The notes beneath the pieces were generated by a model that made no database searches, was not told the origin of the DNA, and saw nothing but the letters and a program-made list of their open reading frames with translations. Shown piece by piece: positions 1,946 to 53,481 of a stretch of DNA of 64,000 bases (position 1 is the first letter of the stretch; every line of letters starts with the position of its first letter). This DNA is from Patescibacteria group bacterium (lineage in GTDB: Bacteria; Patescibacteriota; Patescibacteriia; PEXW01), in NCBI GenBank assembly GCA_041665345.1, contig JBAYJA010000001.1:521206-585205 (forward strand). The letters run 5' to 3'. Position numbers and translations under genes: made by a program.

Positions 1946-3844
1946 ATGATTCACTTCCTCACCCGCAAACTTGAAGGGATCCATCCAGCGCACCACTGGA
2001 CGTTTGGCATTGCCGGACTGGCGTCCATTGCCATTTTGGTCGTGCTCTTCATGGCAAGTCGGCCACCAGTACCATCGCTGACCGGTCTGCGCGAGAATGG
2101 CCTGTACCGCATTGATAGCCCACTGGAACTGGAGTTTGCCTGGCCTGTGGAGCGAAAGCTGGACGTAACGGTTTCACCTGCAGTGCAGCCGCAGATTTCC
2201 TACCACAATTTTCTCCAGCAACGGCATTTAGCCACGGATGCGGTGATAACTCCAGAGCATACCTGGCTACCAAACACCACGTACACGGTTGAAGTGAAAA
2301 ATGTCCGGCGGATGCTCTGGCCTTTTGGTGGACCAAAAACTTTCACTTTCACCTTTACTACACAAGCACTCCCAGCAGTCGCTGTGGTGCAGCCAGGATC
2401 GACGCAGGAAATTCCGGCTGATCAGCAGTGGGATGTGGTGCTGGACAGAGCAATTGATCGAGCGGCAACTTTTGAGGTGCAAACCGAGCCTGCGGGCGCA
2501 TTGACCGTCACCGCGCAAGCAGATCAACGTACCTTACACGTTCAACCGCAGCAACTGTTGACGCAGGGGCAACCGGTAACCTTGGTGGTGTCGCGAACGC
2601 CGCAGCAGTTCATTTTTGATTCTGACGTTGTGGCCAGCCAAGGCGAGCCTGAGGAAATCCATCGGTCGACGTATACCGTGCGTCAGCCACCTGGCCTTTC
2701 CGCCGTGCAACCACAAGGAGCTGGAGTAGCGCTCGCCTCGCCCGTACGGTTAACCTTTTCTGAGCCAGTTGCAGTTGCGGATGTTGAAAAAAATGTAGCA
2801 ATTGCGCCAAAGGTAACAGGGAACTGGTCGCAAGTTGATGCACAGACCGTGCAGTTTGCCCCAAGTGATCTTGTACAAGCAACAACGTACACCGTCAGTG
2901 TGCCCAAAGGTTTGAAAACCACCACAGGAGGATTTATTCCAGCCGAAGTCGTATCACAGTTCCGCACTATTGAACCAGTTGCAGTGACAGGGGTGAGTCC
3001 AGCACATGGGAGCGGTGGCGTCCGCGTCGGATCCAAGCTGCGCTACACCTTCAATCAAGTAGTGGACCATGCCAGTGCCGAAGCGCATTTCCGCATTACG
3101 CCAAAGGTGGAGGGGACTATGAGCTGGGCAGGGAATGTCTTATCATTTACACCCAAGACTGCATTGACGTTGGGTACAGCGTACAGCGTCACCTTGGGTT
3201 CTGGAATAACCAGCCCAGCGGGTTTGCCGTCAACGCAGGATGCAACGTACACCTTTTCCACCGAATTAGCCGTCACCCGCATTGCCGTGCCCTTCCACCG
3301 TCAGGAACGGAGTCTGAGTTGTGAAGCTGCTACTGCGGTTATGGCCCTGCGCTACTACAAGGTGTCTATTACCGAGAAAGCCATTATTGACGCGGTGGGT
3401 TTTGACCGAACGAAGAAACAGGGGAATGTTTGGGGAAACCCGCATGTAGCTTTTGTGGGAGACATTAATGGCCGGCAACCCAGCACTGGGTACGGTGTGT
3501 ACTGGCAACCTATTGCAAAAGCTATTAGTGCGTACCGGCCAGCACGGTGGTTTACGGGTTGGTCCCTGCGGCAACTGCTTACTGAAGTGGAAGCCGGGCA
3601 TCCAGTGATTGTCTGGGGTACAGCTGGGTCTGGGAAGCGGATTGACTGGAAAACCCCAAGCGGCGGGAACGTGGTGGCCGTGATGGGGGAGCACGTCTTC
3701 GTGGTCATGGGCTACATAGGCTCCATTGATAACCCTCAGGTCATCATCACCCAAGATCCGCTCTCTGGTGAGCACCGGTTTACCAAGGCGTCGTTCCTGT
3801 GGAATTGGGGCGTGTTGGGGAACAGCGGGGTCGTGGTAGAGTGA
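1946..3844 (+). CDS. Membrane-anchored protein with Ig-like repeats and C-terminal C39-like cysteine peptidase domain
   Basis: N-terminal TM helix and repetitive beta-rich middle. The C-terminal segment (SCEAATAVMALRYY...GHPVIVWG...GEHVFVVMGY) resembles the peptidase_C39-like (YvpB-type) fold. Confidence 0.5.
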   Translation: MIHFLTRKLEGIHPAHHWTFGIAGLASIAILVVLFMASRPPVPSLTGLRENGLYRIDSPLELEFAWPVERKLDVTVSPAVQPQISYHNFLQQRHLATDAVITPEHTWLPNTTYTVEVKNVRRMLWPFGGPKTFTFTFTTQALPAVAVVQPGSTQEIPADQQWDVVLDRAIDRAATFEVQTEPAGALTVTAQADQRTLHVQPQQLLTQGQPVTLVVSRTPQQFIFDSDVVASQGEPEEIHRSTYTVRQPPGLSAVQPQGAGVALASPVRLTFSEPVAVADVEKNVAIAPKVTGNWSQVDAQTVQFAPSDLVQATTYTVSVPKGLKTTTGGFIPAEVVSQFRTIEPVAVTGVSPAHGSGGVRVGSKLRYTFNQVVDHASAEAHFRITPKVEGTMSWAGNVLSFTPKTALTLGTAYSVTLGSGITSPAGLPSTQDATYTFSTELAVTRIAVPFHRQERSLSCEAATAVMALRYYKVSITEKAIIDAVGFDRTKKQGNVWGNPHVAFVGDINGRQPSTGYGVYWQPIAKAISAYRPARWFTGWSLRQLLTEVEAGHPVIVWGTAGSGKRIDWKTPSGGNVVAVMGEHVFVVMGYIGSIDNPQVIITQDPLSGEHRFTKASFLWNWGVLGNSGVVVE

Positions 3845-3915
3845 AAAAATTGCATAGACGAACTGTATTTATGGCGGTATAGTTTCTGTACCGAAGGATA
3901 TAATTTATACACGAT

Positions 3916-4965
3916 ATGCCAGAATCATCTGAACACTTTCCATACATCCAAGAGGGTCAAGAAGCACGGGAACGTGAGCCCGTTTCGGTTGTTAATGCAT
4001 TTCAGGAACGCGGATTACCATCAAGAGAAGATCAACGCGTTGTAGAGATTACAGGTGAACAATCTGTGGTTGAGCATTTGGAACCGTTGCAAGCGCAGAA
4101 TGCGCCCAATGTACTGTACGGGGTACCCCATGGCGGCGAGCTTGTCCCCAAAGAGCTGCACGACCGAATGACCGAAGAGGGGCGAGAGACATCAGTCATG
4201 ATTGATCTGAATACGCCAGATATTTTTCGAAGTGAAAGAATTCCTTCGGTTGAAACAAAAATTTCACGGTACATTGTTGATCCAAATCGAGCACCAGATT
4301 TTCGTCCAGAGGAAGCTTTTGAACCCGGAAAGGCGCCTGGAAAAATACTTTGGAAAACCGGGGCAAATATGGGTCCAATGTATGAACGTGAGCCGTCCGC
4401 TGATGAAATTCAAGAGTATGCGAAAAAGTTTTACCTACCCTACTATAATCGAATGATGGGAACGGTAGGGACAATGCTTGATCGACGTGCTTCACCCTCT
4501 GAGCGTGTATTGATTCTCGATGGTCATTCATTTCCAGTTGTTGAAGATTTACGAAAGTACTACCAGCATTATGGTATAGACCAACCTGAACTCCTCCCCA
4601 TGTTCATTTTGGGAGACCGTGATGGTGAAGGTTGCGACCCAGACATCATGCAGCGTTTTCGGGTAGGACTTGAACGTGGATTCCAAGAACTCTCCGAGCA
4701 AGATCAGGCGTTACTTCAAACAAGCATGAAAGGCCCATTGGTTAGTCAAAATGAGTTCTTAAAAGGAGTGCATAATATTTCATTTTGGGGTGCGCGTGAG
4801 CAAGGGGCAAACGCAATACAAATTGAAATGAATGAGAGTGCTTATGTTGACAGGCAGGGAAGTAGTTGGGAAAAATTCACTTACAATCCGCAAAAAATCA
4901 CTTTGATGCAGAGAATTATTGAACGTGCATCACTTGAAGTAAATGAGCTCTTGAAGCGGAAGTAA
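3916..4965 (+). CDS. N-formylglutamate amidohydrolase (FGase)-like hydrolase
   Basis: Ordered VPHGGE, VDPNR, DGHSFP and IQIEMNE motifs resemble the FGase family. Lower GC than flanking core genes. Confidence 0.4.
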   Translation: MPESSEHFPYIQEGQEAREREPVSVVNAFQERGLPSREDQRVVEITGEQSVVEHLEPLQAQNAPNVLYGVPHGGELVPKELHDRMTEEGRETSVMIDLNTPDIFRSERIPSVETKISRYIVDPNRAPDFRPEEAFEPGKAPGKILWKTGANMGPMYEREPSADEIQEYAKKFYLPYYNRMMGTVGTMLDRRASPSERVLILDGHSFPVVEDLRKYYQHYGIDQPELLPMFILGDRDGEGCDPDIMQRFRVGLERGFQELSEQDQALLQTSMKGPLVSQNEFLKGVHNISFWGAREQGANAIQIEMNESAYVDRQGSSWEKFTYNPQKITLMQRIIERASLEVNELLKRK

Positions 4966-4978
4966 TTCAACACTTACT

Positions 4979-5833
4979 ATGTCCGAAACTTTTTTCCAAG
5001 AGTTTGACCAGAAGATCACCGCATTTGCCAGCAAGGGGAAAATTCGGCTTGGCATGGGTTTGGCTTCACCAGATGATGCAATTCTGAACAGCTTAAAGCA
5101 AGTTGAACAGTATGCCCAAATAACTTTGGTTGGACCTGCGTCCATTCAAGGTTTGAAAGATTTCCCAGTGATTGTTGACCCCGAACCAGAAGTCCGCTTA
5201 GCAACACTCCTAGCAAAAGGAGAGTTTGATGCTATTATCCGCGGGACAGTTGATGACTTTAAAACGTACGAAAAATACACCGAGTTGACAGGGGAAAAGT
5301 ACACTTTTGCACCTGCACTTTTGGCGTCACCGAATGGTTTTCATTTTTTCCTCACCTCTGCAAGCAACCCGGAGAATTGGCAAAAAGAAGATCGGCTGCT
5401 GTCGTCATCACAAATTGCTGGTTTTCTTCAATCTTGGGATGTAACTCCGAACCTCGCTGTTTTTTCTGGGGAGCGACATGAAACTTACCCTCGGAAAAAG
5501 CATATTCGTGAAGGGGTGGTTGGAATACTCAATCAAACGTATGAAGATGCTGAGTGGATTGTGAAGGAACTGCAGGCGCAGGGGTTCCAAGCAAAGCACT
5601 GGGCAATAGATTTGAACCCAGCAATTGAAGCGGGCGCAAATATAATTTGTCCGGTCAATGGTATGGTTGGCAACCAAGTATTCCGGGTCCTCCTTTTCTG
5701 TGGTGGGAAAATTCTCTTTGGAACGCGCTTAGGTTTATCAAAACTGTACGAAGATAACAGCAGAACCGAAAAGGATTTTTCCTACCATGTGAAGTGGTTA
5801 GCGGCATTGGTGAATAAGCAAGCATATGCATGA
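4979..5833 (+). CDS. Hypothetical protein (weak phosphate acyltransferase-like N-terminus)
   Basis: 284 aa ORF. GKIRLGMGLASPDD...ITLVGP is reminiscent of PTA/PTB N-termini but weak. Overlaps the next gene by 8 nt (ATGCATGA). Confidence 0.3.
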   Translation: MSETFFQEFDQKITAFASKGKIRLGMGLASPDDAILNSLKQVEQYAQITLVGPASIQGLKDFPVIVDPEPEVRLATLLAKGEFDAIIRGTVDDFKTYEKYTELTGEKYTFAPALLASPNGFHFFLTSASNPENWQKEDRLLSSSQIAGFLQSWDVTPNLAVFSGERHETYPRKKHIREGVVGILNQTYEDAEWIVKELQAQGFQAKHWAIDLNPAIEAGANIICPVNGMVGNQVFRVLLFCGGKILFGTRLGLSKLYEDNSRTEKDFSYHVKWLAALVNKQAYA

Positions 5834-7262
5834 ACGTTTTGCTGATCGTTTTCTACATGCAGGTCAAAATCAGCTTCTCACAAAGCAGGAAGGGAACCTC
5901 TCGCTTCTCAATTTTGCCTGTTTGTTAAAAGGGTGTTCCCCAGCCTATACCCGACGATACTACGGAAAAATGGATTTTGGATCCCTTGCTTTTTTTAGCC
6001 AAAAGAAGCATGGTATTTCTTTTTTCTCATTACAAAAGTATCAAGAAACCACTCGTCGTACGTTCAGTGCATATCATCAACGAAATACGAAAAAAAGCCC
6101 AAATGTACAGGATTTTCAGAAGTTGTGGAGGGTGGTTGATGGTTTATATAGCAAGTTCAATGAACAGCGTATTCGTCAATTAGATGAACAAGCTTTACAG
6201 AAGTGCATTTCCGAAATTTTAGACAAGATTGCCCGTCTTTTGGCGATGACCGTGTATACCGAGTCATTGGATATTCCGCAAATACAAACTTACTTTCGCG
6301 AAAGTGGTGGAAGAGCGAGTATAGAAAATTCTTTCTTGCAAAAAGTTGTGGTACCAACCTTCGCATCATTTTCTCAGCATGCTCACAAGTTACTCCTTAA
6401 AAAATATTCGAATCATGATGCGCAATTTCTCTTCAGTGATTACTTTTCCAGCCCAACCGAGATACAAGCACAAACCCGAGCACATAGTTTCATTCGTCAA
6501 AAAGGTGGTGTACAGGCAATGCGCCAAACACTACGGCAAATGCAAAAAATGACAAAAAAATCAGAGCAGGTTATACGTCATTTTTGGAAGAAGTTACTAC
6601 CGCAGGAGCGTAAAGTTTTCGCTTTTGTCCAAGCGAGTATTGCTTTACGGGATCTCCGAAAAATCCCGTTTAATAAACTGTTGGTGCTTTTAAACACTGC
6701 AACTCGGGAGGTGCTGCAACGAAATAAAATCCCAGCGCAACTATCCCCGTATGTTTTTTATGCTGAGCTTGAGGAAGGGGTGGTTCGTCAACCTTCCTAT
6801 CTAAAAGTTTTACGTAGCCGGGAACGAAGAGGTGTGAACGCCTACTTTTTTCCAAATGCTGTCCATATCCGATCCGGCGCCTATAACCAAGAATTGAAGC
6901 AATTACTACGAGCCGTTGGGTCGAAGGCTCGGTCTACTCAACTGCAAGGGACAACTGCATTCATAGGCGTCGTGGAAGGGAAAGTGCAACGAATTCTGAG
7001 TGAAAAAGATTTTCACCGCTTCCGGAAAGGGAATATATTAGTTACCAGTATGACACGGCCTGAATTTGTCCCCCTACTTAAAAAGTCAATCGCCATCATC
7101 ACTGACGAAGGTGGGGTGACTTGCCATGCCGCAATTATTTCTCGTGAATTACAAATTCCTTGTATTGTGGGAACGCAAATTGCTACAAGGGTGTTGAAAG
7201 ATGGCATGCAGGTGCGAGTGGATGCTAAACATGGTGTTGTGCAGGTGTTGAAAAACAAGTAA
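5826..7262 (+). CDS. PEP-utilizing enzyme mobile (phospho-histidine swivel) domain protein
   Basis: C-terminal ILVTSMTRPEFVPLLKKSIAIITDEGGVTCHAAIISRELQIPCIVG is a classic PEP-utilizers His domain. The large N-terminal region has no recognisable family. AT-rich coding. Confidence 0.6.
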   Translation: MHERFADRFLHAGQNQLLTKQEGNLSLLNFACLLKGCSPAYTRRYYGKMDFGSLAFFSQKKHGISFFSLQKYQETTRRTFSAYHQRNTKKSPNVQDFQKLWRVVDGLYSKFNEQRIRQLDEQALQKCISEILDKIARLLAMTVYTESLDIPQIQTYFRESGGRASIENSFLQKVVVPTFASFSQHAHKLLLKKYSNHDAQFLFSDYFSSPTEIQAQTRAHSFIRQKGGVQAMRQTLRQMQKMTKKSEQVIRHFWKKLLPQERKVFAFVQASIALRDLRKIPFNKLLVLLNTATREVLQRNKIPAQLSPYVFYAELEEGVVRQPSYLKVLRSRERRGVNAYFFPNAVHIRSGAYNQELKQLLRAVGSKARSTQLQGTTAFIGVVEGKVQRILSEKDFHRFRKGNILVTSMTRPEFVPLLKKSIAIITDEGGVTCHAAIISRELQIPCIVGTQIATRVLKDGMQVRVDAKHGVVQVLKNK

Positions 7263-7265
7263 TAC

Positions 7266-8210
7266 ATGAATACAATGTATACAAAAGAATTTGCGAAAAT
7301 TAGGAAATCAGATTCTTTCATGGCTGGGGGTAAAGGCGCATCATTAGGAAAAATGACACAAGCGCGGATACCTGTTCCCCCAGGCTTTGTTATTCTTGCC
7401 ACGGCATTTGACAAGTTTATTCTTGAAGGGAGTATTGCAACTATCATTGGATCAACGTTGCGAAAGGTAGATTCCCGACAAACCAAGTCTGTCGTTGTCG
7501 CTTCTAAAGAAATCCGACAGGTCATACGTCGAACCAAAATTCCCAGTGAAATACAGAAAGCCATTCAGCAGCAAGTTTCAAAATTAGGAGCACATTTTTT
7601 AGCAGTACGCTCTTCCGCAACGGCTGAAGATGGGGTTGATGCTTCTTGGGCAGGGGAACTGGAAAGTTACCTTAACGTGACTCCGCAGAATGTTATGGCA
7701 GCAGTTCGGAACTGCTGGTCTTCGCTGTTTACCCCTCGAGCAATTTTTTATCGATTTGAAAAGAAATTCCAGAAGAGAAAAGTATCTGTAGCGGTGGTAG
7801 TGCAAACGATGATTCAATCCGAAGTATCTGGTGTAGCTTTTACCGTACATCCGGTAACCAAAAATCGAAATCATGTGGTCATTGAAGCAGGCTATGGATT
7901 GGGTGAAGCAATTGTGGGTGGAAAAATTACTCCGGATATGTTCGTGGTGCATAAAAAAAGTGGGAACATCATCGAACGTCGCATTAGCGAGCAGCACATG
8001 CAGATTGTCCGTTCAGGAACCGGTACAAAGGAGACAAAAGTACCACGTCAAAAAATTGGTTTGCAAAAACTTTCTGATGCAGTCGTGTTACGTCTAGCAA
8101 AACTTTGTCTGACCATTGAGCAGCATTACAAAAAGCCCCAAGATATTGAGTGGGCTTTTGCAAAAGGAAAACTATGTATAGTGCAAAGCAGGCCAATTAC
8201 TACTTTATGA
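7266..8210 (+). CDS. PEP synthase/pyruvate phosphate dikinase N-terminal ATP-grasp (nucleotide-binding) domain protein
   Basis: GGKGASLGKM...IPVPPGFVI and later ATP-grasp motifs match PPDK_N. Starts 4 nt after the preceding His-domain gene. Confidence 0.65.
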   Translation: MNTMYTKEFAKIRKSDSFMAGGKGASLGKMTQARIPVPPGFVILATAFDKFILEGSIATIIGSTLRKVDSRQTKSVVVASKEIRQVIRRTKIPSEIQKAIQQQVSKLGAHFLAVRSSATAEDGVDASWAGELESYLNVTPQNVMAAVRNCWSSLFTPRAIFYRFEKKFQKRKVSVAVVVQTMIQSEVSGVAFTVHPVTKNRNHVVIEAGYGLGEAIVGGKITPDMFVVHKKSGNIIERRISEQHMQIVRSGTGTKETKVPRQKIGLQKLSDAVVLRLAKLCLTIEQHYKKPQDIEWAFAKGKLCIVQSRPITTL

Positions 8211-8245
8211 TAGAATAAAAGTATCGCAAATAACCAGATTATTGT

Positions 8246-8488
8246 ATGCCCGAAACCCAAGAAGAATTTAAAATCACCAGCGAAAAGCTGGTGGAAAAAG
8301 TGAAGGAACTTATCCACGAAGGGAACATTCGGCGGATCATCATTAAGAACGAGAAAGGGGAGTCAGTCCTGGAAATTCCTGTCACCCTGGGTGCGGTTGG
8401 CTTCTTGCTTGCCCCCTACTTGGCTGCCATTGGCGCTTTAGCGGCGGTGCTGACCAATTGTTCTGTGGTTGTGGTGAAGAAAGCATAA
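8246..8488 (+). CDS. Small membrane-associated protein (DUF4342-like)
   Basis: 80 aa with a hydrophobic C-terminal half (LGAVGFLLAPYLAAIGALAAVL). Confidence 0.4.
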   Translation: MPETQEEFKITSEKLVEKVKELIHEGNIRRIIIKNEKGESVLEIPVTLGAVGFLLAPYLAAIGALAAVLTNCSVVVVKKA

Positions 8489-8516
8489 GCTCAACCTGGT
8501 GCGAAAGACAACAGTC

Positions 8517-8545
8517 TTGACTTTTTACGTAGGAGTTTAATACTA
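8517..8545 (+). promoter_or_regulatory. Candidate sigma70-type promoter for ABC transporter operon
   Basis: TTGACT, a 17-nt spacer, then ATACTA about 40 nt upstream of the 8588 start. Confidence 0.3.
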
Positions 8546-8587
8546 TTCTACAGCCTCTCACTATAGGTAATTACTTTTTTCTCACAT

Positions 8588-9877
8588 ATGATGGAAATTT
8601 TTCGAAACATGTTTCGGCGGAAAATGCGAACTGTGCTGACCATCGTTGGTATCACCGTGGGCATTTTTGCGTTTACGGTTATGGGTTCCATGGCACTCCG
8701 TTTCAACAAAATGATTGCCGGGGGGAAGAGCTTCATTACCGGGCAGATTACGCTCATGCCCAAAGGGACGTCATTCACCTCCATGGGCGGTGCCGCGTTT
8801 TTGCCGGTTGATACCCTGCAGCAAATCAGCAAGGTGGAAGGTGTGCAGGCAGTTGCGGCTGGCGTGGAATTAGCTTTGAAGGAACCAGACCCAGATAATC
8901 CAACCGGGGAGTTTAGTTTTGGTCCGCCGCCGACCATTGAAGGTATGGATCTCAACTCTACCTATGAAAATCGGAACTGGAAGACCATGGATATGAAAGC
9001 TGGGCGAATGCTGGCGAAAGGGGACAAGGATAACCAGGTCACTGTCGGCTACACCATTGCTATTGATAAAGGATTGAAGGTTGGTGATGAAACGGAAATT
9101 CGTGGTCGGAAGTTTGAAGTGATTGGGATTATTGATCAAACCCTCACGGGGCCTGACCAGTACGTATTCATGTCCCTCAAGTCTGCACGTGAGCTGCTTG
9201 TGGAATCCAACCCTTTCCTTAAGTCTTTGAAAGAACGCTCAGACGAAGCAGCGAAAATCTCTGATGCAGATTTGGCAAAGTTGCCTGAAGCAACCCGGAA
9301 GCAGGTTTTGGATGCACGCGCGTTCAAGCTAGAAGACGTGACGCAAATGGGTGCTGTTTCCTGGCAGGATGGTCAAGACCCAGATGTGGTGGCGAATCGG
9401 ATCAAGGATCAATTCAAAGATGAAGTCATTGTCCTCTCGCCCATCAAACTTGGGGAGACCATTGATAAAGCCTCAGCGATTTTCAACGCAATTATTCTTG
9501 GGAGCGCGGTCATTGCGTTGATTGTGGGTGGCTTCTCCATTATCAACACCATGGTCATGTCCATTTCTGAGCGGAAGCGGGAAATTGGGATTAAGAAAGC
9601 CATTGGTGCCTCCAACCGTTCCATTGCGTGGGACTACACTTTGGAAGCTGGTGCCATTGGGATTTTGGGTGGGCTCATTGGCATGGGCTTTGGCCTGCTG
9701 GCAATTTTCTTCATCAACGGGCAAACGGCGAAGAGTGGAGCTGAGATCTTCCTGGTTACTCCTGGCTTCATGGTTGGGGTGGTGGTTTTCTCCCTGGTCT
9801 TGGGTTTGGTCGCAGGTCTCTTGCCGGCCGTCCGTGCATCCAAGATGAATGCGGTTGATGCAATTCGTGAACTGTAA
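8588..9877 (+). CDS. ABC transporter permease, FtsX/MacB-like
   Basis: N-terminal TM helix, large periplasmic domain and a C-terminal FtsX-type 3-TM bundle. Confidence 0.8.
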   Translation: MMEIFRNMFRRKMRTVLTIVGITVGIFAFTVMGSMALRFNKMIAGGKSFITGQITLMPKGTSFTSMGGAAFLPVDTLQQISKVEGVQAVAAGVELALKEPDPDNPTGEFSFGPPPTIEGMDLNSTYENRNWKTMDMKAGRMLAKGDKDNQVTVGYTIAIDKGLKVGDETEIRGRKFEVIGIIDQTLTGPDQYVFMSLKSARELLVESNPFLKSLKERSDEAAKISDADLAKLPEATRKQVLDARAFKLEDVTQMGAVSWQDGQDPDVVANRIKDQFKDEVIVLSPIKLGETIDKASAIFNAIILGSAVIALIVGGFSIINTMVMSISERKREIGIKKAIGASNRSIAWDYTLEAGAIGILGGLIGMGFGLLAIFFINGQTAKSGAEIFLVTPGFMVGVVVFSLVLGLVAGLLPAVRASKMNAVDAIREL

Positions 9878-9886
9878 TTTACCTTT

Positions 9887-10567
9887 ATGAACCGAACTTT
9901 GATTCATACCGAAAACCTGCACAAGCAGTACCGCATGTCCAAAACGAACGTCGTGCACGCGCTGCGGGGGGTGAGCCTGGACGTCCAGGAAGGGGATTTC
10001 ACTGCAATCATTGGTCCTTCTGGCGGCGGCAAATCCACGCTCTTGCACATCCTGGGCTTGCTGGATAAACCAGACAACGGGACGTTCATACTCGACGGCA
10101 TTGATGTGATGAAAATGAAGGAGAAGGAAGCGCACCTGGTTCGCGCCAAAAAACTAGGTTTCATCTTCCAAGGCTTTAACCTCATTCCCACGCTCACCGC
10201 GTTAGAAAACGTGATGCAAGCTGGGCGCTATGGCGGTCTCAATGCCAAAGCACGAAAAACGCGAGCTTTAGAACTCTTGGAGCAGGTTGGTCTACACCAG
10301 CGCGGCAATCACAAACCCAATGAACTCTCAGGTGGCCAGCAGCAGCGAGTTGCCATTGCTCGGGCACTCATGAACAAACCCACCATTATTCTGGCGGATG
10401 AGCCAACTGGCGAGCTGGATTCCAAGACCTCAGCCGAAATTATTGCCATGCTCCAGCAGTTGAATAAGGAGCACAACCAGACCTTCCTCATGGTCACCCA
10501 CAACCTAGACGTGGCCGCGATGTGCAAGAAGGTGGTGAAGCTGGTGGACGGGAAGAATGAAACGTAG
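9887..10567 (+). CDS. ABC transporter ATP-binding protein (LolD/MacB-type)
   Basis: Walker A GPSGGGKST, signature LSGGQQQRVAIARAL, Walker B ILADEPTGELD. Confidence 0.9.
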   Translation: MNRTLIHTENLHKQYRMSKTNVVHALRGVSLDVQEGDFTAIIGPSGGGKSTLLHILGLLDKPDNGTFILDGIDVMKMKEKEAHLVRAKKLGFIFQGFNLIPTLTALENVMQAGRYGGLNAKARKTRALELLEQVGLHQRGNHKPNELSGGQQQRVAIARALMNKPTIILADEPTGELDSKTSAEIIAMLQQLNKEHNQTFLMVTHNLDVAAMCKKVVKLVDGKNET

Positions 10568-10598
10568 AAAATGAAGCGCACGCATTATTGAGTTCGTA

Positions 10599-10633
10599 AA
10601 GAAAAAACCCAAAAATCTTCTGGGTTTTTTTGA
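10599..10633. terminator. Bidirectional rho-independent terminator between convergent genes
   Basis: Hairpin cccaaaaatcttctggg flanked by an A-run and a T-run. Confidence 0.6.
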
Positions 10634-10643
10634 AGCCGCAAGC

Positions 10644-11333
10644 TCACATCCGTGCAGAAATCGCTATTTTTTTGGAAGTGATTTTGTCAAGTAAATTTGT
10701 CGCAACACGAACTTTTGCTTCTTTTGAAGTTTTTCCCGTTGCGGAGTCGTAACTCCGTTGAAAAATAAGTGCTTGGGCAACAAATTTTCCATTTCTAAAG
10801 AAAACGCGGTATTCCACGAATGTCCTGTACACCTGTCGAACGTACTTGGCTAGTTCGGTTATTGGACAGGTTATTGCTCTATCGTTGGCCTTCCACTGCA
10901 TCTCTGGATGAAGCGTTTCTTGTAAAAACCGTTTTGCTTCACGTATACCCCGCTCAATGTAGAGGGCTCCAACCAGTGCCTCATAGGTCGTTCCTAAAGA
11001 ATGTGCGTTCGGCAGGTCTTGGTTGTGCAAAAGATCTTGTAAATAAATATCTACCGCACTTTTTTGGAGTATCGAAGCAAGGCGTTTGTTACTCCAACCC
11101 ATTGACGCCATCTTACTGGCCAACGCAGGATCGAGACCCTCATGACGTATCAGTTGTTCACAGACAAAGAAATGGATAACACCGTCACCCAGGAAAGCAA
11201 GTTGATCCCGAGTGTAGAATGGGGTTCGGTATTTCTTTTTGTCTGGTAAACCAATAGCCACTGCAAGTGCTCTCCGTGTTCGCAGTTGTAAGCCCAGAGC
11301 TTTTGCGAAGTACTGGGCAATAGCATTTTTCAC
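10644..11333 (-). CDS. rnc: Ribonuclease III
   Basis: LAFLGDGV and YEALVGALYIE catalytic-domain motifs plus a C-terminal dsRBD-like GKTSKEAKVRVA. I place the start at GTG 11331-11333 because AAGGAGG lies 5 nt upstream. The longer ATG-started ORF to 11465 is probably spurious. Confidence 0.7.
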   Translation of the reverse strand: MKNAIAQYFAKALGLQLRTRRALAVAIGLPDKKKYRTPFYTRDQLAFLGDGVIHFFVCEQLIRHEGLDPALASKMASMGWSNKRLASILQKSAVDIYLQDLLHNQDLPNAHSLGTTYEALVGALYIERGIREAKRFLQETLHPEMQWKANDRAITCPITELAKYVRQVYRTFVEYRVFFRNGKFVAQALIFQRSYDSATGKTSKEAKVRVATNLLDKITSKKIAISARM

Positions 11334-11377
11334 TTTTCCTCCTTGATTTTGTGTTTCAGTGTTAGTAGTTTTATGGA

Positions 11378-13465
11378 ATGTATGATTTCTGTCAACCGCG
11401 CTATACTGTAACCATGAACTTTTCTGCACTCTTGCATCCAAGATCAATCGCCGTGGTTGGCGCATCGCATGATCGAAAGAAAATTGGGAATGTGCTATTC
11501 CGCAATTGCTTAGGTTTTGGCTACCGAGGAAAAGTGTACCCGGTTAATCCCACGGCCAAACGGATTGAAGGAAAGCGGGCGTATGCATCCATTGGCAGCC
11601 TCCCAGTACGTCCAGACCTGGTAATCATTGCTACACCAGCTGTTACCGTGCCTGCGGTGCTGCGGGATGCTGTGCGTGCCAGAGCCAAAGCAGTAATTGT
11701 CATTAGCGCCGGGTTCGCGGAAACCGGAATGGTTGGCACAAAGCTTGAACGTCAGATTATGGCGATTGCGAAAAAAGGAAAACTGGCTCTGCTGGGTCCA
11801 AATTGTTTGGGCATGGTTTTGCCACACCTAAAGCTCAATGCGTCATTTAGCCAAGGTATGCCAGACGTAGGAAACGTGACCATCCTGTCCCAATCCGGCG
11901 CAATTGCCGTGGCCAACATGGAGTGGGCAAAGAAGCATCACGTTGGCTTCCGGGCAGTGGTGAGTTTGGGAAACAAGGCAGTCTTGGGGGAGGAAGCGTT
12001 GCTTGAAGTGTTTGGGAAAGATAAAGGAACCGGGGTTATCCTCATGTACTTGGAAGACATCCGCAGTGGCCGAGCTTTTTTGGAAACGGCACAGCAGGTG
12101 TCCAAGCAGAAGCCAGTCATCATCTTGCGCGCGGGCAAGACCGCCGCCGGCGCAAAAGCTGCATTCTCGCACACCGGTGCATTGGCGGGGAGTGGGGAAG
12201 TGACCGATGCCTTGCTGCGTCAGGCGGGTTGTACCGTGGTGCGTACTACCGATGAATGGTTTGCCCTTGCGGCGGCGTTTGAGCAACTCAAGCGGGCAAA
12301 AGGAAATCGGTTGGCGATTTTGACTAATGCTGGCGGTGCGGGTATTTTGGCGACTGATGCTATGGCTGGAACCGCGCTGCAATTCGCGTCGTTCAAGCCA
12401 AAGACGATCCAAGCGCTGCGCAAAGTGCTTCCTCCTGCTGCCAGTGTGCACAACCCGGTTGATGTTATTGGTGACGCGCCGCCCAAGCGTTACGCAGACG
12501 CCTTACGAGTTGTAGTCGCAGATCCCGGGGTAGACATCGTGGTCGCTTGCATCACGCACCAAATGGTGACGCAGAGCCGCCTCGTGGCCAAAGCGATTGT
12601 CGAAATACAAAAGCGAACACCCAAGCCAATTATCCCAGTGTTCATTGGTGGTGCACAGGTGCAGCGAGCATTGGATACTGTTCGGAAGGCAAACCTCTCC
12701 GGTTTCGCTTACCCAGAGACAGGCATTTTTGCCGCAGGGGCATTGGCCAGAATGAGCAAAGTAAAACTTCCCATTCGGCCAGTGACAAAGCTACAACCGC
12801 AATCTGCGGGAAAGCTCACGAGTCTGGTTGGCGCCCAAGCCGCAAAACTTCTTCGATCAGCAAAGATTTCCGTGCTCCCAACCTACGCAATTCAGTCAGC
12901 GCAACAGGCGGTGAAAGTTGCCAAGCGACTTGCATATCCGGTTGTCATGAAGCTAGAAGCCTCCAGTGTTTTGCATAAAACCGAAGCAGGGGCAGTAACG
13001 GTTGATCTCCACACCCCAGCCATGGTGCAAGCGGCATATACGACGTTTGCCCGTCGTTTCAGAAAAGAATTAAAGAACCCTAACGCACATATTGTTTTGC
13101 AAGACCAGCGTCAGGGCGGAGTTGAGCTTATTCTCGGTGCGGTTCGTGATCCGCAGTTTGGGCCGATTATTGTCCTGGGGTTTGGGGGCATCTTTGTGGA
13201 AGCCATGCACAGCGTGGCTTACGCGTGCGCGCCCATGACTTTGGCTGATGTAAAAATTTTTGTGGAATCTTCACCAGTCTGGAAAGTGCTCCGGGGTGCG
13301 CGCGGCCAGGAATTTGCCACCCGGGAAGTTATGCACTTGGTTGCGAAGCTCAGTTCGTTCATTGCCAAACACCCTAAGGTGCAGAGTGTGGATCTTAACC
13401 CAGTACTGGTCAATCACCGAGCTGCAACACCTGTGGATGCCCGGATTATGCAATTTCCTGTATGA
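11378..13465 (+). CDS. acd: Acetyl-CoA synthetase (ADP-forming), fused alpha/beta
   Basis: CoA-binding Rossmann domain (SIAVVGAS), succinyl-CoA-synthetase-like flavodoxin domain and C-terminal ATP-grasp. The true start may be the ATG at 11414 (MNFSALL). Confidence 0.8.
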   Translation: MYDFCQPRYTVTMNFSALLHPRSIAVVGASHDRKKIGNVLFRNCLGFGYRGKVYPVNPTAKRIEGKRAYASIGSLPVRPDLVIIATPAVTVPAVLRDAVRARAKAVIVISAGFAETGMVGTKLERQIMAIAKKGKLALLGPNCLGMVLPHLKLNASFSQGMPDVGNVTILSQSGAIAVANMEWAKKHHVGFRAVVSLGNKAVLGEEALLEVFGKDKGTGVILMYLEDIRSGRAFLETAQQVSKQKPVIILRAGKTAAGAKAAFSHTGALAGSGEVTDALLRQAGCTVVRTTDEWFALAAAFEQLKRAKGNRLAILTNAGGAGILATDAMAGTALQFASFKPKTIQALRKVLPPAASVHNPVDVIGDAPPKRYADALRVVVADPGVDIVVACITHQMVTQSRLVAKAIVEIQKRTPKPIIPVFIGGAQVQRALDTVRKANLSGFAYPETGIFAAGALARMSKVKLPIRPVTKLQPQSAGKLTSLVGAQAAKLLRSAKISVLPTYAIQSAQQAVKVAKRLAYPVVMKLEASSVLHKTEAGAVTVDLHTPAMVQAAYTTFARRFRKELKNPNAHIVLQDQRQGGVELILGAVRDPQFGPIIVLGFGGIFVEAMHSVAYACAPMTLADVKIFVESSPVWKVLRGARGQEFATREVMHLVAKLSSFIAKHPKVQSVDLNPVLVNHRAATPVDARIMQFPV

Positions 13466-32700: not shown

Positions 32701-34671
32701 ATGAAGATTACTTCTGTTTCAATATCTAATATCCTTAGTTTTCCTCATAAGGAAGCATTTTCTACTCCCACTATTACCTTTCAAGGCGAACGATCAGGAG
32801 GAAGTCAGCATATTTTGATTGGTCCAAACGGGTCGGGGAAAAGTAATTTTATTGAAATAATCAACCAGATTTTCCAAAGGGTTCTGTTTCAGCCTATTGT
32901 CTTTAATGAAAGCTCTCTAAATCAATTTAAAAGGACTGGTAATAAGAATGGCTTAGGGCAAACAATCCAGACACCACAAAAAAGCCCCACTAGTTATATT
33001 GAAAAAAATTATTATTCAACCCAGATGGATAAAAAAGTAATTATAGAGATTGAACTAAGCGATAAAGACCAGGAAAACATAATCTTTCTTGGACACAATA
33101 TTGAACAAATAAATGAAATGATTGATAGGTATGGAAGTTCAGGCACTCCGGTGATTCATAAATTCTCAACCAGTTTTGATTTAAACGAACTTGCCAAAAT
33201 TCACAAGTTAGAGTTAACAATTGAAGATAATTCACCGACAAATACCTATACTGTAAACGTAAATGGAAATACCCCAGAAAAGCAGCTTGCGAGTGAATAC
33301 CTTCAATTTTTTAAACTTTTAAAAAGGCTTATATATATTCATAACAGTTATGAGATAGGAGAGCGGGGAACTTCTTGGAAAGAAATAAACGAAAATTTCG
33401 TTTTGCTCGGAAGCTACAGGAATTACCATAGCTTTAATGAATCAGTCGATGTTAATCCTGATCCCGAGGCTCAATTTAGGGCATTGGATGAGAGGCGATT
33501 AAATGAAAATACTAAGAGTGGTGACAATAACGAACCAGCTGTCATGGAACTTGTTCGCCGAAAAGTAGCAAATGAATACCATCGTTTAATACATAATCCG
33601 GAAGCAACTGTTAAAAAAGCACCCGAGTTAATAAAAAGCTTCCCATTGCTAAAGAAAATTAATGAAAAGTTAAATTCTTTTTTAGGTATAACCCTAGAAA
33701 TCACTGATCCAGAATATAGGGATTTAAGCTATGAAATGTTTTTTTCCGACAATAACGCAGGTGGTCAAAGGGTGAATTTCTCCGGTTTAAGTTCAGGCCA
33801 AAAAAGTATAGTACACCTTATTTTTACTTTGTTTGGATACGATCTTGATAACGGTTCTATAATAATTGATGAGCCAGAACTTCATTTGCATCCTCAAATG
33901 CAACAAAAGTACTTAAAACTTATTAAAGAATTAAAGGAAGAAAAGAACATACAATTTGTTATCGCTACTCACTCCCCAATTTTTGTAAATTCTGAAACTA
34001 TTAAGGACACATATCGATTTTTTATGGACCAGAAAGAGACAAAAATTATTAATCCAAAGATCACGAGTTCAGAATATGAACTAATCAAAATTCTGGATTA
34101 TACAAATTCTTCAAAGATCTTTTTCTCTGAAAAAGCAATTCTAGTCGAAGGCGAGTCTGACGAGTTTTTTTATAGGTACTTCATTGAAGAATATCTGAAA
34201 ACAGAATTCCCATCTCTACAAAGTCAACAGTTAAAAACTTATGAAGTTTTTAATATTAGTGGGAAAGGAAGTAGTAAAAGATGGAGAAAGTTTTTAGAAG
34301 ATTTTAAAGTCGATGTCTCTTTTGTGGCAGATTGGGACAATATCGCTAACTTTAAAATTGAAAATGTACAAGAAATGGCGAATCTTACAAGCAAGACTCA
34401 AACTGATTATTGCGGAATAACTGAAGAATTGATCAAGAATCATAACGTAAAGTTTAGTGAGATTTCGTCAGCTATTGATAGCCTCAAAGCGTCTAAGAAT
34501 TACATATTAAAATTAGGGTCCCTTGAGTGTTACCTAGGGTTGTCAGGAAAGGAAAAAGTGGAAGAAGTCATTGATTTTTGTCATACAAGATTTTTAAGCT
34601 GGAAAATAGAACCCGTCTATGAGAACAAACGGCTTGAATTAGAAAATATTTTTAAAGGCATACTAGTATAA
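32701..34671 (+). CDS. OLD-family ATP-dependent endonuclease (ABC-type ATPase + TOPRIM), class-1 OLD or fused PARIS AriA/AriB-like
   Basis: Walker A GPNGSGKSN, ABC signature-like LSSGQKS, Walker B IIIDEPELHLHP, H-loop ATHSP. TOPRIM motifs: ILVEGESDE, ISGKGS, VADWDN. Strongly AT-rich compared with the flanks. Confidence 0.8.
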   Translation: MKITSVSISNILSFPHKEAFSTPTITFQGERSGGSQHILIGPNGSGKSNFIEIINQIFQRVLFQPIVFNESSLNQFKRTGNKNGLGQTIQTPQKSPTSYIEKNYYSTQMDKKVIIEIELSDKDQENIIFLGHNIEQINEMIDRYGSSGTPVIHKFSTSFDLNELAKIHKLELTIEDNSPTNTYTVNVNGNTPEKQLASEYLQFFKLLKRLIYIHNSYEIGERGTSWKEINENFVLLGSYRNYHSFNESVDVNPDPEAQFRALDERRLNENTKSGDNNEPAVMELVRRKVANEYHRLIHNPEATVKKAPELIKSFPLLKKINEKLNSFLGITLEITDPEYRDLSYEMFFSDNNAGGQRVNFSGLSSGQKSIVHLIFTLFGYDLDNGSIIIDEPELHLHPQMQQKYLKLIKELKEEKNIQFVIATHSPIFVNSETIKDTYRFFMDQKETKIINPKITSSEYELIKILDYTNSSKIFFSEKAILVEGESDEFFYRYFIEEYLKTEFPSLQSQQLKTYEVFNISGKGSSKRWRKFLEDFKVDVSFVADWDNIANFKIENVQEMANLTSKTQTDYCGITEELIKNHNVKFSEISSAIDSLKASKNYILKLGSLECYLGLSGKEKVEEVIDFCHTRFLSWKIEPVYENKRLELENIFKGILV

Positions 34672-52852: not shown

Positions 52853-53092
52853 ATGACCCAAAAAGTCCTAAAAGTTGGCGATTCCGCGGCGGTGACTATT
52901 TCAAAGGAATCACTGAAAAACCTTGGCTGGAAGGTTGGTTCACGCGTAAATGTTACCGTTGACCCACTGAAGCAAATAGTAAAGATAGTCCCGGAAAAGC
53001 GTCAGAATGCTGATGAAGACAAGATCGCAAAATTGACGATGCGTTTTATTGAGCGTTATCGTTCAGACTTGTTAGCCCTAGCAAAACAGTAA
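52853..53092 (+). CDS. AbrB/MazE-type antitoxin
   Basis: VLKVGDSAAVTISKESLKNLGWKVGSRVNV swapped-hairpin motif. Overlaps the toxin start. Confidence 0.65.
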   Translation: MTQKVLKVGDSAAVTISKESLKNLGWKVGSRVNVTVDPLKQIVKIVPEKRQNADEDKIAKLTMRFIERYRSDLLALAKQ

Positions 53093-53481
53093 TGCGATAC
53101 CTTAAAGTTGAGCATCTCTTGAAGATGCACTCATTTGTAGTAGACGAAACTGGTGGCGCTCATGGTCTTCGTGATCGTGGGCGCTTAGAAAGTGCAACAA
53201 CCCGACCGCAACAGAGTGTGTTTGGAAAAGAATTATTCCCAACAATTTTTCAAAAGGCGGCTGCGTATGCACACGCAATAATTTTTGACCATCCATTTGT
53301 AGATGGAAACAAACGAACAGCTATGACTGCAGCGCTCGTTTTCCTTGAAGACAATGGTTTTCGCTGTGTTACAAAAGAAGGTGAAATTCATGCATTCGCT
53401 TTACGGATTGTCCGTGAGAAAATGGAAATTCCTTCAATTGCAATCTGGCTGCAAAAACATACTGAGCAAATAAGAAACTGA
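53092..53481 (+). CDS. doc: Doc (death-on-curing) / Fic-family toxin
   Basis: Fic motif HPFVDGNKRTA. Confidence 0.8.
   Translation: MRYLKVEHLLKMHSFVVDETGGAHGLRDRGRLESATTRPQQSVFGKELFPTIFQKAAAYAHAIIFDHPFVDGNKRTAMTAALVFLEDNGFRCVTKEGEIHAFALRIVREKMEIPSIAIWLQKHTEQIRN

Follow-up and report, generated by a model that had tools for sequence, protein, structure and literature searches.

Two-component dikinases related to rifampin phosphotransferase (RPH) are known from PpsAB, CreHI and HpeHI, in which one subunit joins a substrate domain to a phosphohistidine swivel domain and the other is an ATP-grasp subunit; both subunits are required, and a conserved His is essential (PMC12167813). HpeHI, with the substrate domain and swivel in HpeH and the ATP-grasp in HpeI, is a biochemically characterised two-component RPH homologue, the dikinase chemistry (ATP to AMP and Pi) has been established for PpsAB, and the catalytic His is defined by the motif T/SxxGGxxxH (PMC12167813). 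In RPH itself, Lys22, Arg117 and Thr136 are ATP-grasp residues, and Arg666, Glu667 and Lys670 of the substrate domain hold the phosphate and His825 (PMC4844700). Here we describe two adjacent genes, gene 1 (5826-7262) and gene 2 (7266-8210), in a 64,000-nucleotide stretch from a Patescibacteria group bacterium (assembly GCA_041665345.1, contig JBAYJA010000001.1, positions 521,206 to 585,205 of the forward strand), which we call the window. We put the probability at about 0.75 that each of them encodes one subunit of an RPH-type small-molecule dikinase that belongs with PpsAB, CreHI and HpeHI. The enzyme type is already known and its two-component split has been described before (PpsAB, CreHI, HpeHI); the pair is neither a split phosphoenolpyruvate (PEP) synthase nor an RPH orthologue. 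Judged by sequence comparison, gene 1 is a new subfamily of substrate subunit, shorter than PpsA and HpeH and unmatched to them outside the swivel. The domains of the pair are as follows.

5826..6935, + strand: N-terminal domain of gene 1 (aa 1-370), RPH-type, mostly helical, predicted to bind the substrate (AlphaFold2 (AF2) and Foldseek)
6936..7262, + strand: C-terminal phosphohistidine swivel domain of gene 1 (aa 371-478; PF00391, E = 1.8e-24)
7266..8210, + strand: gene 2, stand-alone ATP-grasp (PPDK_N) nucleotide-binding subunit of 314 aa (PF01326, E = 4e-99)

Gene 2 is a separate polypeptide that carries PPDK_N only, as expected of a two-component enzyme. The PF01326 match spans aa 20-313 and profile positions 4-311 of 328, and the protein aligns end to end with solved ATP-grasp domains, namely those of PEP synthase (PEPS; 8a8e, 3.5e-67), RPH (5hv6, 4.4e-61) and 9goj (3.9e-52), the last being a stand-alone ATP-grasp chain that we take to be HpeI of HpeHI. 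The GGKG, AVRSSATAED, QDIEW and QSRPIT motifs are all intact, K23 (in GGKG, 7332-7334), R115 and S134 align with RPH Lys22, Arg117 and Thr136, and the polypeptide stops precisely at the domain boundary (...IVQSRPITTL).

Gene 1 encodes 478 aa, in which Pfam recognises PEP-utilizers (PF00391) at aa 399-470 and no other domain. The swivel matches those of PEPS in the PDB (9dae and 8a8e, E about 1e-24), and its His434 (codon 7125-7127) lies within TDEGGVTCHAAIISRE. The surrounding sequence, TDEGGVTCH434AAIISRE, conforms to the catalytic-His motif T/SxxGGxxxH (T426-DEGGVTC-H434), and its GGVTCHAAI (GGxTCHAAI) is of the PEPS type, with the regulatory Thr. H434 is invariant across 40 full-length gene 1 homologues.

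An AF2 model of gene 1 built on these 40 homologues reached a pLDDT of 92.5 and a pTM of 0.92. When the PDB was searched with this model using Foldseek, ranks 1-6 were all RPH-Lm structures, aligned over the whole chain with E values of 3e-12 to 6e-10 (3e-12 to 8e-12 for 5fbs, 5fbu and 5fbt). The query-normalised TM-score (TMq) was 0.49-0.53 for four of these structures and 0.30-0.33 for two G527Y-mutant entries, whereas proteins matching in the swivel only (PPDK, PEPS, pyruvate kinase and Enzyme I) scored just ~0.2. Since RPH-Lm ranks first over the full chain and the others reach only ~0.2, we conclude that the N-terminal domain of roughly 370 aa is, as modelled, an RPH-type substrate-binding domain; in the structural alignment its identity to RPH does not exceed 16%. 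By Pfam together with AF2 and Foldseek, then, an RPH-type domain is followed by a C-terminal swivel on the second polypeptide, and it is because the N-terminus of gene 1 is of this type that we read the pair as a two-component RPH-like dikinase. The profile of the A1 family carries the sequence match onward into RPH residues 701-866. Further upstream, gene 1 contains the motif R275-D276-L-R278-K279 (6648-6662); among the 40 homologues R275, D276 and R278 never vary, and K279 is conserved in at least 90%. An alignment offset of about 391-394 puts this motif at approximately RPH 666-669, and R275, D276 and K279 probably equate to Arg666, Glu667 and Lys670 of the RPH phosphate-binding network.

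Several observations weigh against this interpretation. The match of R275 to Arg666 is drawn from motif spacing and the alignment offset, with no residue-level superposition. Outside its last ~70 residues and the swivel, the N-terminal domain does not significantly match RPH, HpeH or PpsA in sequence, so the homology of the substrate domain leans mainly on one predicted structure and its Foldseek matches. A single-sequence search with this domain against 1.84 billion representatives gave 108 matches; all belong to one metagenomic family, and hence provide no sequence bridge to characterised enzymes. Lastly, the closest relatives of gene 1 adjoin an isochorismatase gene (L081, L082) or a fused dikinase (L080), not the MtxX-like gene that precedes gene 1 in the window. 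Because partner genes vary in this way, coupling of the pair to a pathway involving the MtxX-like and N-formylglutamate amidohydrolase (FGase)-like proteins, described below, is not universal.

The swivel of gene 1 and the PPDK_N domain of gene 2 are the only ones in the window. Both genes belong to a run of co-directional open reading frames (ORFs; 3916-4965, 4979-5833, 5826-7262, 7266-8210 and 8246-8488), the remaining features of which are the following.

3855..3883, + strand: promoter-like site TAGACG-17-TATAGT (consensus scan, 9/12 matches), weak, possibly the operon promoter
3916..4965, + strand: FGase-family (N-formylglutamate amidohydrolase-like) hydrolase of 349 aa, first gene of the low-GC operon (PF05013, E = 2.5e-30)
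4979..5833, + strand: MtxX/Mmp4-like protein of 284 aa with a PTA fold (TIGR03270 below cut-off, 9nzy, AF2 and Foldseek)
8246..8488, + strand: small DUF4342 protein of 80 aa (PF14242, E = 1.7e-26)

The genes are tightly spaced. Thirteen nucleotides separate the FGase-like and MtxX-like genes, the MtxX-like stop and the gene 1 ATG share an 8-nt overlap (ATGCATGA), and a 3-nt spacer lies between the gene 1 stop (TAA, 7260-7262) and the gene 2 ATG (7266). The promoter-like site sits within the 71-nt gap between a Big_5/C39 gene and the FGase-like gene; promoter and terminator scans returned no more sites than shuffled controls. An Rfam scan of 3500-8800 (E up to 1) detected no RNA element, and hence no riboswitch or other RNA hint to a ligand. 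A comparison of the five proteins with the PADLOC models (E up to 0.01) gave no match, and we therefore dropped a defence-system identity. The DUF4342 gene begins 35 nt after gene 2. No DUF4342 homologue adjoins a module in about 150 related loci, and the gene is probably a neighbour outside the module. Other genes of the window encode iPGM, an ADP-forming acetyl-CoA synthetase, PFOR, RecJ and AlaRS, which suit a fermentative bacterium belonging to the candidate phyla radiation (CPR); an origin in E. coli was rejected after a megablast search with 3800-8600 gave no match.

A preliminary description of this locus, made from the sequence alone, had placed a swivel at the C-terminus of gene 1 and the ATP-grasp domain in a separate gene behind it, and the ORFs and Pfam bear this out; the junction is as tight as described, except that the spacer is 3 nt rather than 4. 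That description had also proposed an RPH-like small-molecule phosphotransferase module, had left the N-terminus of gene 1 unassigned pending structure prediction, and had seen the main threat to its proposal in a known PpsA central domain and a common split ppsA. The predicted structure (pLDDT 92.5) has an RPH-type fold, whole gene 1 superposes on the rifampin-binding and swivel domains of RPH, and Pfam finds no TIM barrel; the N-terminus is not the central or PEP-binding domain of PpsA. The split is indeed common and conserved in the lineage, but what is split is not ppsA.

The FGase-like and PTA-like genes, both already recognised in the preliminary description, extend this picture. The FGase-like protein scores 54.8 bits against the HutG equivalog model (TIGR02017), and since this is far under the cut-off of 278.75 we assign it to the FGase superfamily only, not to HutG; its match to PDB 2q7s has an E value of 5e-9. 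Relatives are rare, with 13 in all in a database of 5.8 billion proteins. All six FGase contigs that we examined (L083, L085, L101, L148-L150) contain swivel genes, and in five of them a PTA-fold gene stands beside the FGase gene. In L148 (7440-11748) the FGase/module cluster lies beside PrgI, TraC-like and TraG-like genes and may be on a mobile element; in L149 (7563-10065) the neighbours are a flavokinase fragment, riboflavin synthase, lumazine synthase and FolD.

Pfam makes no assignment for the MtxX-like gene (4979-5833). Its product scores 79.1 bits against TIGR03270 (E = 2.8e-22), below the cut-off of 190, and is thus a homologue rather than an equivalog of MtxX; it matches the MtxX structure 9nzy with an E value of 4e-6 and an identity of about 19%. 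The best Foldseek match to its AF2 model (pLDDT 92.9) is again 9nzy (2.4e-15, target-normalised TM-score 0.74), followed by PTA domains. In addition to the PTA-like fold, the protein has the cleft motif D-T/N-S-R in the form D-N-S-R (aa 259-262, 5753-5764), matching DTSR of MtxX and the Ser-Arg catalytic pair of PTA; among 31 homologues S261 is kept without exception and R262 in at least 90%. MtxX has retained, in its cleft, the Ser-Arg pair with which PTA binds acetyl-phosphate, an acidic and hydrophobic ligand is predicted for it, and the proposed catalytic Asp of PTA is not kept (PMC12978539).

Relatives of the MtxX-like protein at 45-66% identity occur both in CPR bacteria and in DPANN archaea. 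We fetched 65 loci encoding such proteins, 44 of which had room downstream of the gene; a swivel gene follows directly in 33 of the 44, and in at least 15 of these 33 it is a module like gene 1, that is, an N-terminal domain joined to a swivel. Minimal sets have the form [grasp][MtxX][module] or [MtxX][module][grasp], as in L142, and the full order FGase-MtxX-module-grasp is found in L083, L085 and L101. An operon of FGase-like, MtxX-like (PTA fold), module and ATP-grasp genes therefore recurs in CPR and DPANN genomes.

A survey of gene 1 relatives covered 79 genome loci of roughly 17 kb each, from CPR or DPANN metagenome-assembled genomes (MAGs). Swivel domains are present in co-directional arrays, with 1-11 per locus and a median of 4. 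Arrays of 2-11 genes (L001-L082; e.g., L011 4065-17428, L042, L050 and L007) are made up of genes of ~330-520 aa, each with a variable RPH-type N-terminal domain and a conserved swivel, and each of the 29 grasp-bearing loci has exactly one grasp. Where the grasp is a separate gene, it comes after the module genes in nine loci, inside them in three and before them in two. The preliminary description had called the pair circularly permuted; this holds for the gene order of two polypeptides only, since fused members of the gene 1 subfamily (P0014, P0022 and P0079; 783-810 aa) keep the RPH order of grasp, middle domain and swivel. A true permuted fusion at the protein level, which is rare, was seen in L070 (4417-5949), where one ORF has the swivel (aa 84-151) ahead of PPDK_N (aa 212-510). 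Four loci have a giant ORF, unbroken and free of Ns, with the arrangement ATP-grasp-(domain-swivel)n.

L022, 81-11384: 3,768 aa, one PPDK_N and eight PEP-utilizers domains (Pfam)
L045, 3-14144: at least 4,714 aa, one grasp and ten swivels
L008, 6153-15059: 2,969 aa, one grasp and six swivels
L006, 2601-9431: 2,277 aa, four swivels

The N-terminal domains of the arrays, mostly 350-400 aa long, form one superfamily, with 269 of about 320 linked at 1e-5. At 1e-30 they fall into more than 50 subfamilies, gene 1 being in a subfamily of 15 members, and the arrays mostly mix subfamilies. Paralogues within one locus have swivels that are 55% identical and N-terminal domains that are just 21% identical, and the catalytic His is kept by almost all of 350 swivels. 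The strict motif R[DE]xx[KR] is present in 132 of 322 array paralogues, compared with 38 in shuffled sequences, and is thus enriched but not universal. Conserved swivels, diverged N-terminal domains and retention of the His fit many substrate modules docking on one charger. Recurrent array genes encode PTA_PTB, His_Phos_1, isochorismatase, HAD, HD-like, hexapeptide-repeat and TrmB proteins. We give even odds to the proposal that the pair is the one-module, minimal form of an undescribed CPR/DPANN system in which one ATP-grasp charger phosphorylates the swivels of many substrate modules. That such a system would serve as an ATP-driven, PTS-like battery for phosphorylating multiple substrates, plausibly in metabolite or lipid salvage, seems to us an evenly balanced prospect, and the same weight attaches to counting MtxX-like or PTA, FGase, His_Phos_1, isochorismatase, HAD and HD proteins as its partner enzymes.

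In the searchable literature we came across no description of the arrays or of dikinases in CPR/DPANN; one resistome survey counts rph-like genes in CPR (PMC8651080). Among individual loci, PTA_PTB genes (E = 7e-90) are found in the DPANN arrays L047 (9905-10894), L033, L046, L053, L055, L058, L072 and L078, often in a trio of Hexapep, a 431-aa protein without assignment and PTA. One array swivel, in L004 (2518-4203), lacks the catalytic His (...LSPSVEQQ...) and may be a degenerate or regulatory module. Precomputed Pfam labels pointed to fusions with UDP-GlcNAc 2-epimerase (P0002, P0087), which were rejected as spurious because the matches are below cut-off and overlie the swivel itself. Some array-bearing TPA-assembled MAGs are labelled Gammaproteobacteria or Methanosarcinales (L002, L025, L038, L039, L069, L006, L048, L059 and L078); because every other match is CPR or DPANN, these labels are probably wrong or the contigs misbinned.

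By analogy with RPH and HpeHI, the following reaction scheme can be proposed for the pair. Gene 2, as the ATP-grasp subunit, would bind ATP. The gene 1 swivel would dock on gene 2, and His434 would attack the beta-phosphate, with AMP leaving and the gamma-phosphate being lost as Pi. The phospho-His domain would then swing back to the N-terminal RPH-type domain of gene 1 itself, where R275, D276 and K279 would form a network that orients the phosphoryl group so that an oxygen of the small molecule bound there can accept it. The conserved linkage suggests that the MtxX-like PTA-fold enzyme and the FGase-like amidohydrolase, co-transcribed with the pair, act on the phospho-product or its precursor. 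The most economical guess as to the substrate is an anionic or hydrophobic metabolite salvaged by biosynthetically poor symbionts.

A different acceptor is conceivable, though improbable: the module could activate a carboxylate, forming an acyl-phosphate from which the MtxX-like protein would transfer the acyl group to a thiol or another acceptor, with the FGase-like amidase supplying the acid through deacylation of an N-acyl compound. The result would be an AMP-forming route that leads from an amide through the acid and its acyl-phosphate to an acyl-carrier, and this has the same low standing. It would account for the recurrence of PTA-fold partners, with MtxX-like genes adjoining modules in 33 of 44 loci and genuine PTA_PTB genes (E = 7e-90) inside eight DPANN arrays, and it would make use of the amidohydrolase activity of the FGase family. 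Transfer from phospho-His to a carboxylate also has a precedent, in succinyl-CoA synthetase. However, every RPH-family enzyme characterised so far transfers phosphate to a hydroxyl or enol oxygen (rifampin C21-OH, phenols), and the operon has no CoA- or ACP-related gene. The MtxX structure can be argued both ways, since the Ser-Arg pair for acetyl-phosphate and the acidic/hydrophobic predicted ligand fit acyl transfer, whereas MtxX has not kept the Asp proposed to be catalytic in PTA (PMC12978539); in favour, the window protein also retains D-N-S-R. What points to this variant, from carboxylate through acyl-phosphate to acyl transfer, is the recurrent PTA-fold partners and nothing else, and we treat it as speculative.

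The four genes at 3916-8210 differ in base composition from the rest of the window. Their G+C content (GC) is 0.42-0.45, and that at third codon positions (GC3) 0.35-0.43, against means of 0.506 and 0.547 over 67 window genes (z = -1.2 to -2.1). The lower-GC segment placed at 3.85-8.5 kb by the preliminary description is thus real but narrower: the DUF4342 gene (0.494) and the MacB-type ABC genes that follow it (0.50-0.53) are outside the low-GC block. A 51.5-kb Parcubacteria contig, L085, is syntenic with the window, its gene order being enolase, iPGM, iPGM, Big_5/C39, [MerR-helix-turn-helix (HTH) + swivel], FGase, MtxX, module, module and grasp. Identities to the window are 74% for iPGM, 47% for Big_5/C39, 51% for FGase, 62% for the MtxX-like protein and 57% for the grasp. 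The L085 modules (8869-11851) are not orthologous to gene 1, alignment being limited to the swivel and about 100 preceding residues; non-orthologous modules in an otherwise syntenic operon suggest, as far as sequence can tell, cassette replacement within a conserved frame. The L085 operon has a GC of 0.39-0.45, compared with 0.49-0.50 in its flanks.

A low-GC block of this sort might be taken for an island gained recently by horizontal transfer, and perhaps one that is decaying or without function. Consistent with this are the GC and GC3 values themselves (1.2-2.1 sd under the window genes), the lack of orthology between the gene 1 N-terminal domain and the L085 modules, the PrgI/TraC/TraG-like genes adjoining the related cluster in L148, and the distribution of the family over both CPR bacteria and DPANN archaea. 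We nonetheless think an island unlikely. L085 has the same operon in the same place with the same GC deficit, which argues against recent acquisition; no tRNA in the window, no integrase and no flanking repeat was detected, and all ORFs are intact with their catalytic residues conserved. On the best reading, the block is an old resident operon of this chromosomal site with an exchanged substrate module.

In relatives, the FGase-MtxX-module-grasp operon begins with a gene for a protein of ~555 aa in which a MerR/HTH_17 DNA-binding domain is N-terminal and a swivel C-terminal (L085, 5180-6853; L083, 902-2566; also L084, L088 and L139); the window has no such gene. These proteins may be transcription regulators controlled by phospho-His.

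The preliminary description also considered an antibiotic role for the pair, and as a resistance kinase it would inactivate rifamycins or another host-derived toxin. RPH is indeed the closest solved fold to gene 1, a CPR resistome survey counted rph-like genes as resistance genes (PMC8651080), and a MacB-type ABC exporter is encoded downstream (8588-10567). The RPH equivalog models (NF041857, NF000283), however, give the pair only 64.4 and 284.4 bits where the cut-off is 999, and 51.1 and 197.1 where it is 1700; the single-chain architecture of grasp, rifampin-binding domain (RIF-BD) and swivel is absent, the pair being split; and the N-terminal domain is no more than 16% identical to RPH in structural alignment. 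Most RPH homologues are not rifampin enzymes, since the middle domain diverges (Stogios et al., PMC4844700). The conserved partners of the module are metabolic-type enzymes (FGase, MtxX), and the exporter is neither in the low-GC block nor conserved alongside the module. An antibiotic or xenobiotic function is accordingly unsupported, and we consider it quite unlikely.

Less likely still is a regulatory phosphorelay, in which gene 1 would sense a ligand and, through the state of its phospho-His, control other proteins in a PTS-like manner. That syntenic relatives begin the operon with a MerR-HTH protein ending in a swivel implies that some swivel proteins are regulators, and a phosphorelay is possible for those proteins. 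It does not extend to gene 1, which has no DNA-binding or output domain and in which the phosphotransfer motif R-D-x-x-K, as in a catalytic substrate domain, is retained; nor does the window contain a MerR-swivel gene. Finally, a genuine PEP synthase (pyruvate, water dikinase) split in two for gluconeogenesis beside iPGM and enolase, the identity favoured by the best NCBIfam names (NF005057, 125 and 331 bits), by the swivel motif GGxTCHAAI with its regulatory Thr and by the position of the operon after iPGM, is most improbable and was rejected on domain content, because the PEP-utilizers_C TIM barrel is absent by Pfam from gene 1, gene 2 and the whole window, the scores (with 115 and 321 bits for TIGR01418) fall below the cut-offs of 598 and 739.75, and the gene 1 N-terminal domain is RPH-like.

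Elsewhere in the window, the most atypical gene (32701-34671; GC 0.333, z = -3.6) encodes a 656-aa OLD-family nuclease with an AAA_15/AAA_21 ATPase and an OLD-like TOPRIM domain, and is probably a horizontally acquired defence gene. Immediately upstream of an ABC-type ATPase gene is a Fic/DOC gene (53092-53481) whose GC3 is low (0.30, z = -2.5). The iPGM gene is present in tandem, at 21-326 (a partial ORF at the window start that matches iPGM aa 415-532) and 331-1932, and L085 likewise has two adjacent iPGM genes after enolase. The RNase III gene (10644-11465, - strand; GC 0.439) overlaps by 88 nt the listed start of the ADP-forming acetyl-CoA synthetase gene (11378-13465, + strand), whose true start is probably further downstream.

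Two-component RPH-like dikinases, so far known only from phenolic catabolism in free-living bacteria, would by these data extend to the ultra-small symbionts of the CPR and DPANN. They would do so within a large and apparently undescribed system that places up to 10 phospho-His modules under one ATP-grasp, in arrays or megaproteins of up to about 14 kb; this is a large share of small genomes (the source contig is about 1 Mb), and the system may therefore be an important part of CPR/DPANN physiology. The adjacency of MtxX-like genes and dikinase modules suggests a testable hypothesis for MtxX/MMP4 and, if the link is as tight as it appears, would be the first functional handle on methanogen marker protein 4. 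Resistome studies should take note that genes called "rph" or "PEP synthase" in CPR genomes most likely represent these modules.

How, then, do the window proteins compare with known systems? MtxX, or methanogen marker protein 4 (9NZY), is the best match in sequence and fold to the protein encoded upstream of gene 1, with which it has the PTA fold and the Ser-Arg cleft in common; the window protein is only ~19% identical, scores 79 against a cut-off of 190, comes from a non-methanogen host and is encoded next to dikinase modules, unlike the methanogen neighbourhoods of MMP genes or UPP synthase. PEP synthase and PPDK have homologous ATP-grasp and swivel domains, and the swivel motif of the window protein, GGVTCHAAI, is PEPS-type, but the pair has no PEP/pyruvate TIM barrel and differs in domain order and in its third domain. 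The prodigiosin ligases PigC and RedH are enzymes of RPH architecture and illustrate that members of this family can employ phosphoryl activation in condensation; they are single polypeptides, their NCBIfam models give gene 2 only 237 and 229 bits, far under cut-off, and there are no pyrrole-pathway genes here. GWD and PWD of plants, in which a substrate-binding region is followed by a phospho-His domain and then by a C-terminal PPDK_N-type domain, have the gene order seen here; GWD acts on starch via carbohydrate-binding modules, and a close relationship to the pair is unsupported. With the phosphotransferase system (PTS), in which Enzyme I charges HPr and, through it, many EII proteins, the arrays have in common the logic of one charger for many phospho-His modules, and the Enzyme I swivel is homologous, but the donor here would be ATP via ATP-grasp rather than PEP, with neither HPr nor EII proteins.

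The two closest comparisons are RPH and the two-component enzymes. RPH-Lm (5FBS, 5FBT, 5FBU, 5HV1) is the best fold match to whole gene 1 and a strong sequence match to gene 2 (4e-61), and has in common with the pair three functional domains, the swivel mechanism and the phosphotransfer motif R-[ED]-x-x-K. It differs in being one polypeptide in the order grasp, RIF-BD, swivel, whereas the window enzyme is split with the gene order reversed; the substrate domain in the window is shorter by about 80 aa, with an identity of 16% at most, and the RPH equivalog models fail. In HpeHI, CreHI and PpsAB, the substrate/swivel gene likely precedes the grasp gene, judged from the names. These systems resemble the pair in having a stand-alone ATP-grasp subunit and a subunit in which an RPH-type substrate domain is followed by a C-terminal swivel. 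At the sequence level gene 1 falls outside the PpsA/HpeH type (PRK08296 models), with 103.6 bits against 578 for NF006153 and a match confined to aa 351-476, and at 478 aa it is shorter than HpeH (about 71 kDa). The hosts of the described systems are free-living, aromatic-degrading bacteria and their partners aromatic catabolic genes, whereas the host here is a CPR symbiont, the partners are FGase-like and MtxX-like, and the pair belongs to a multi-module system.

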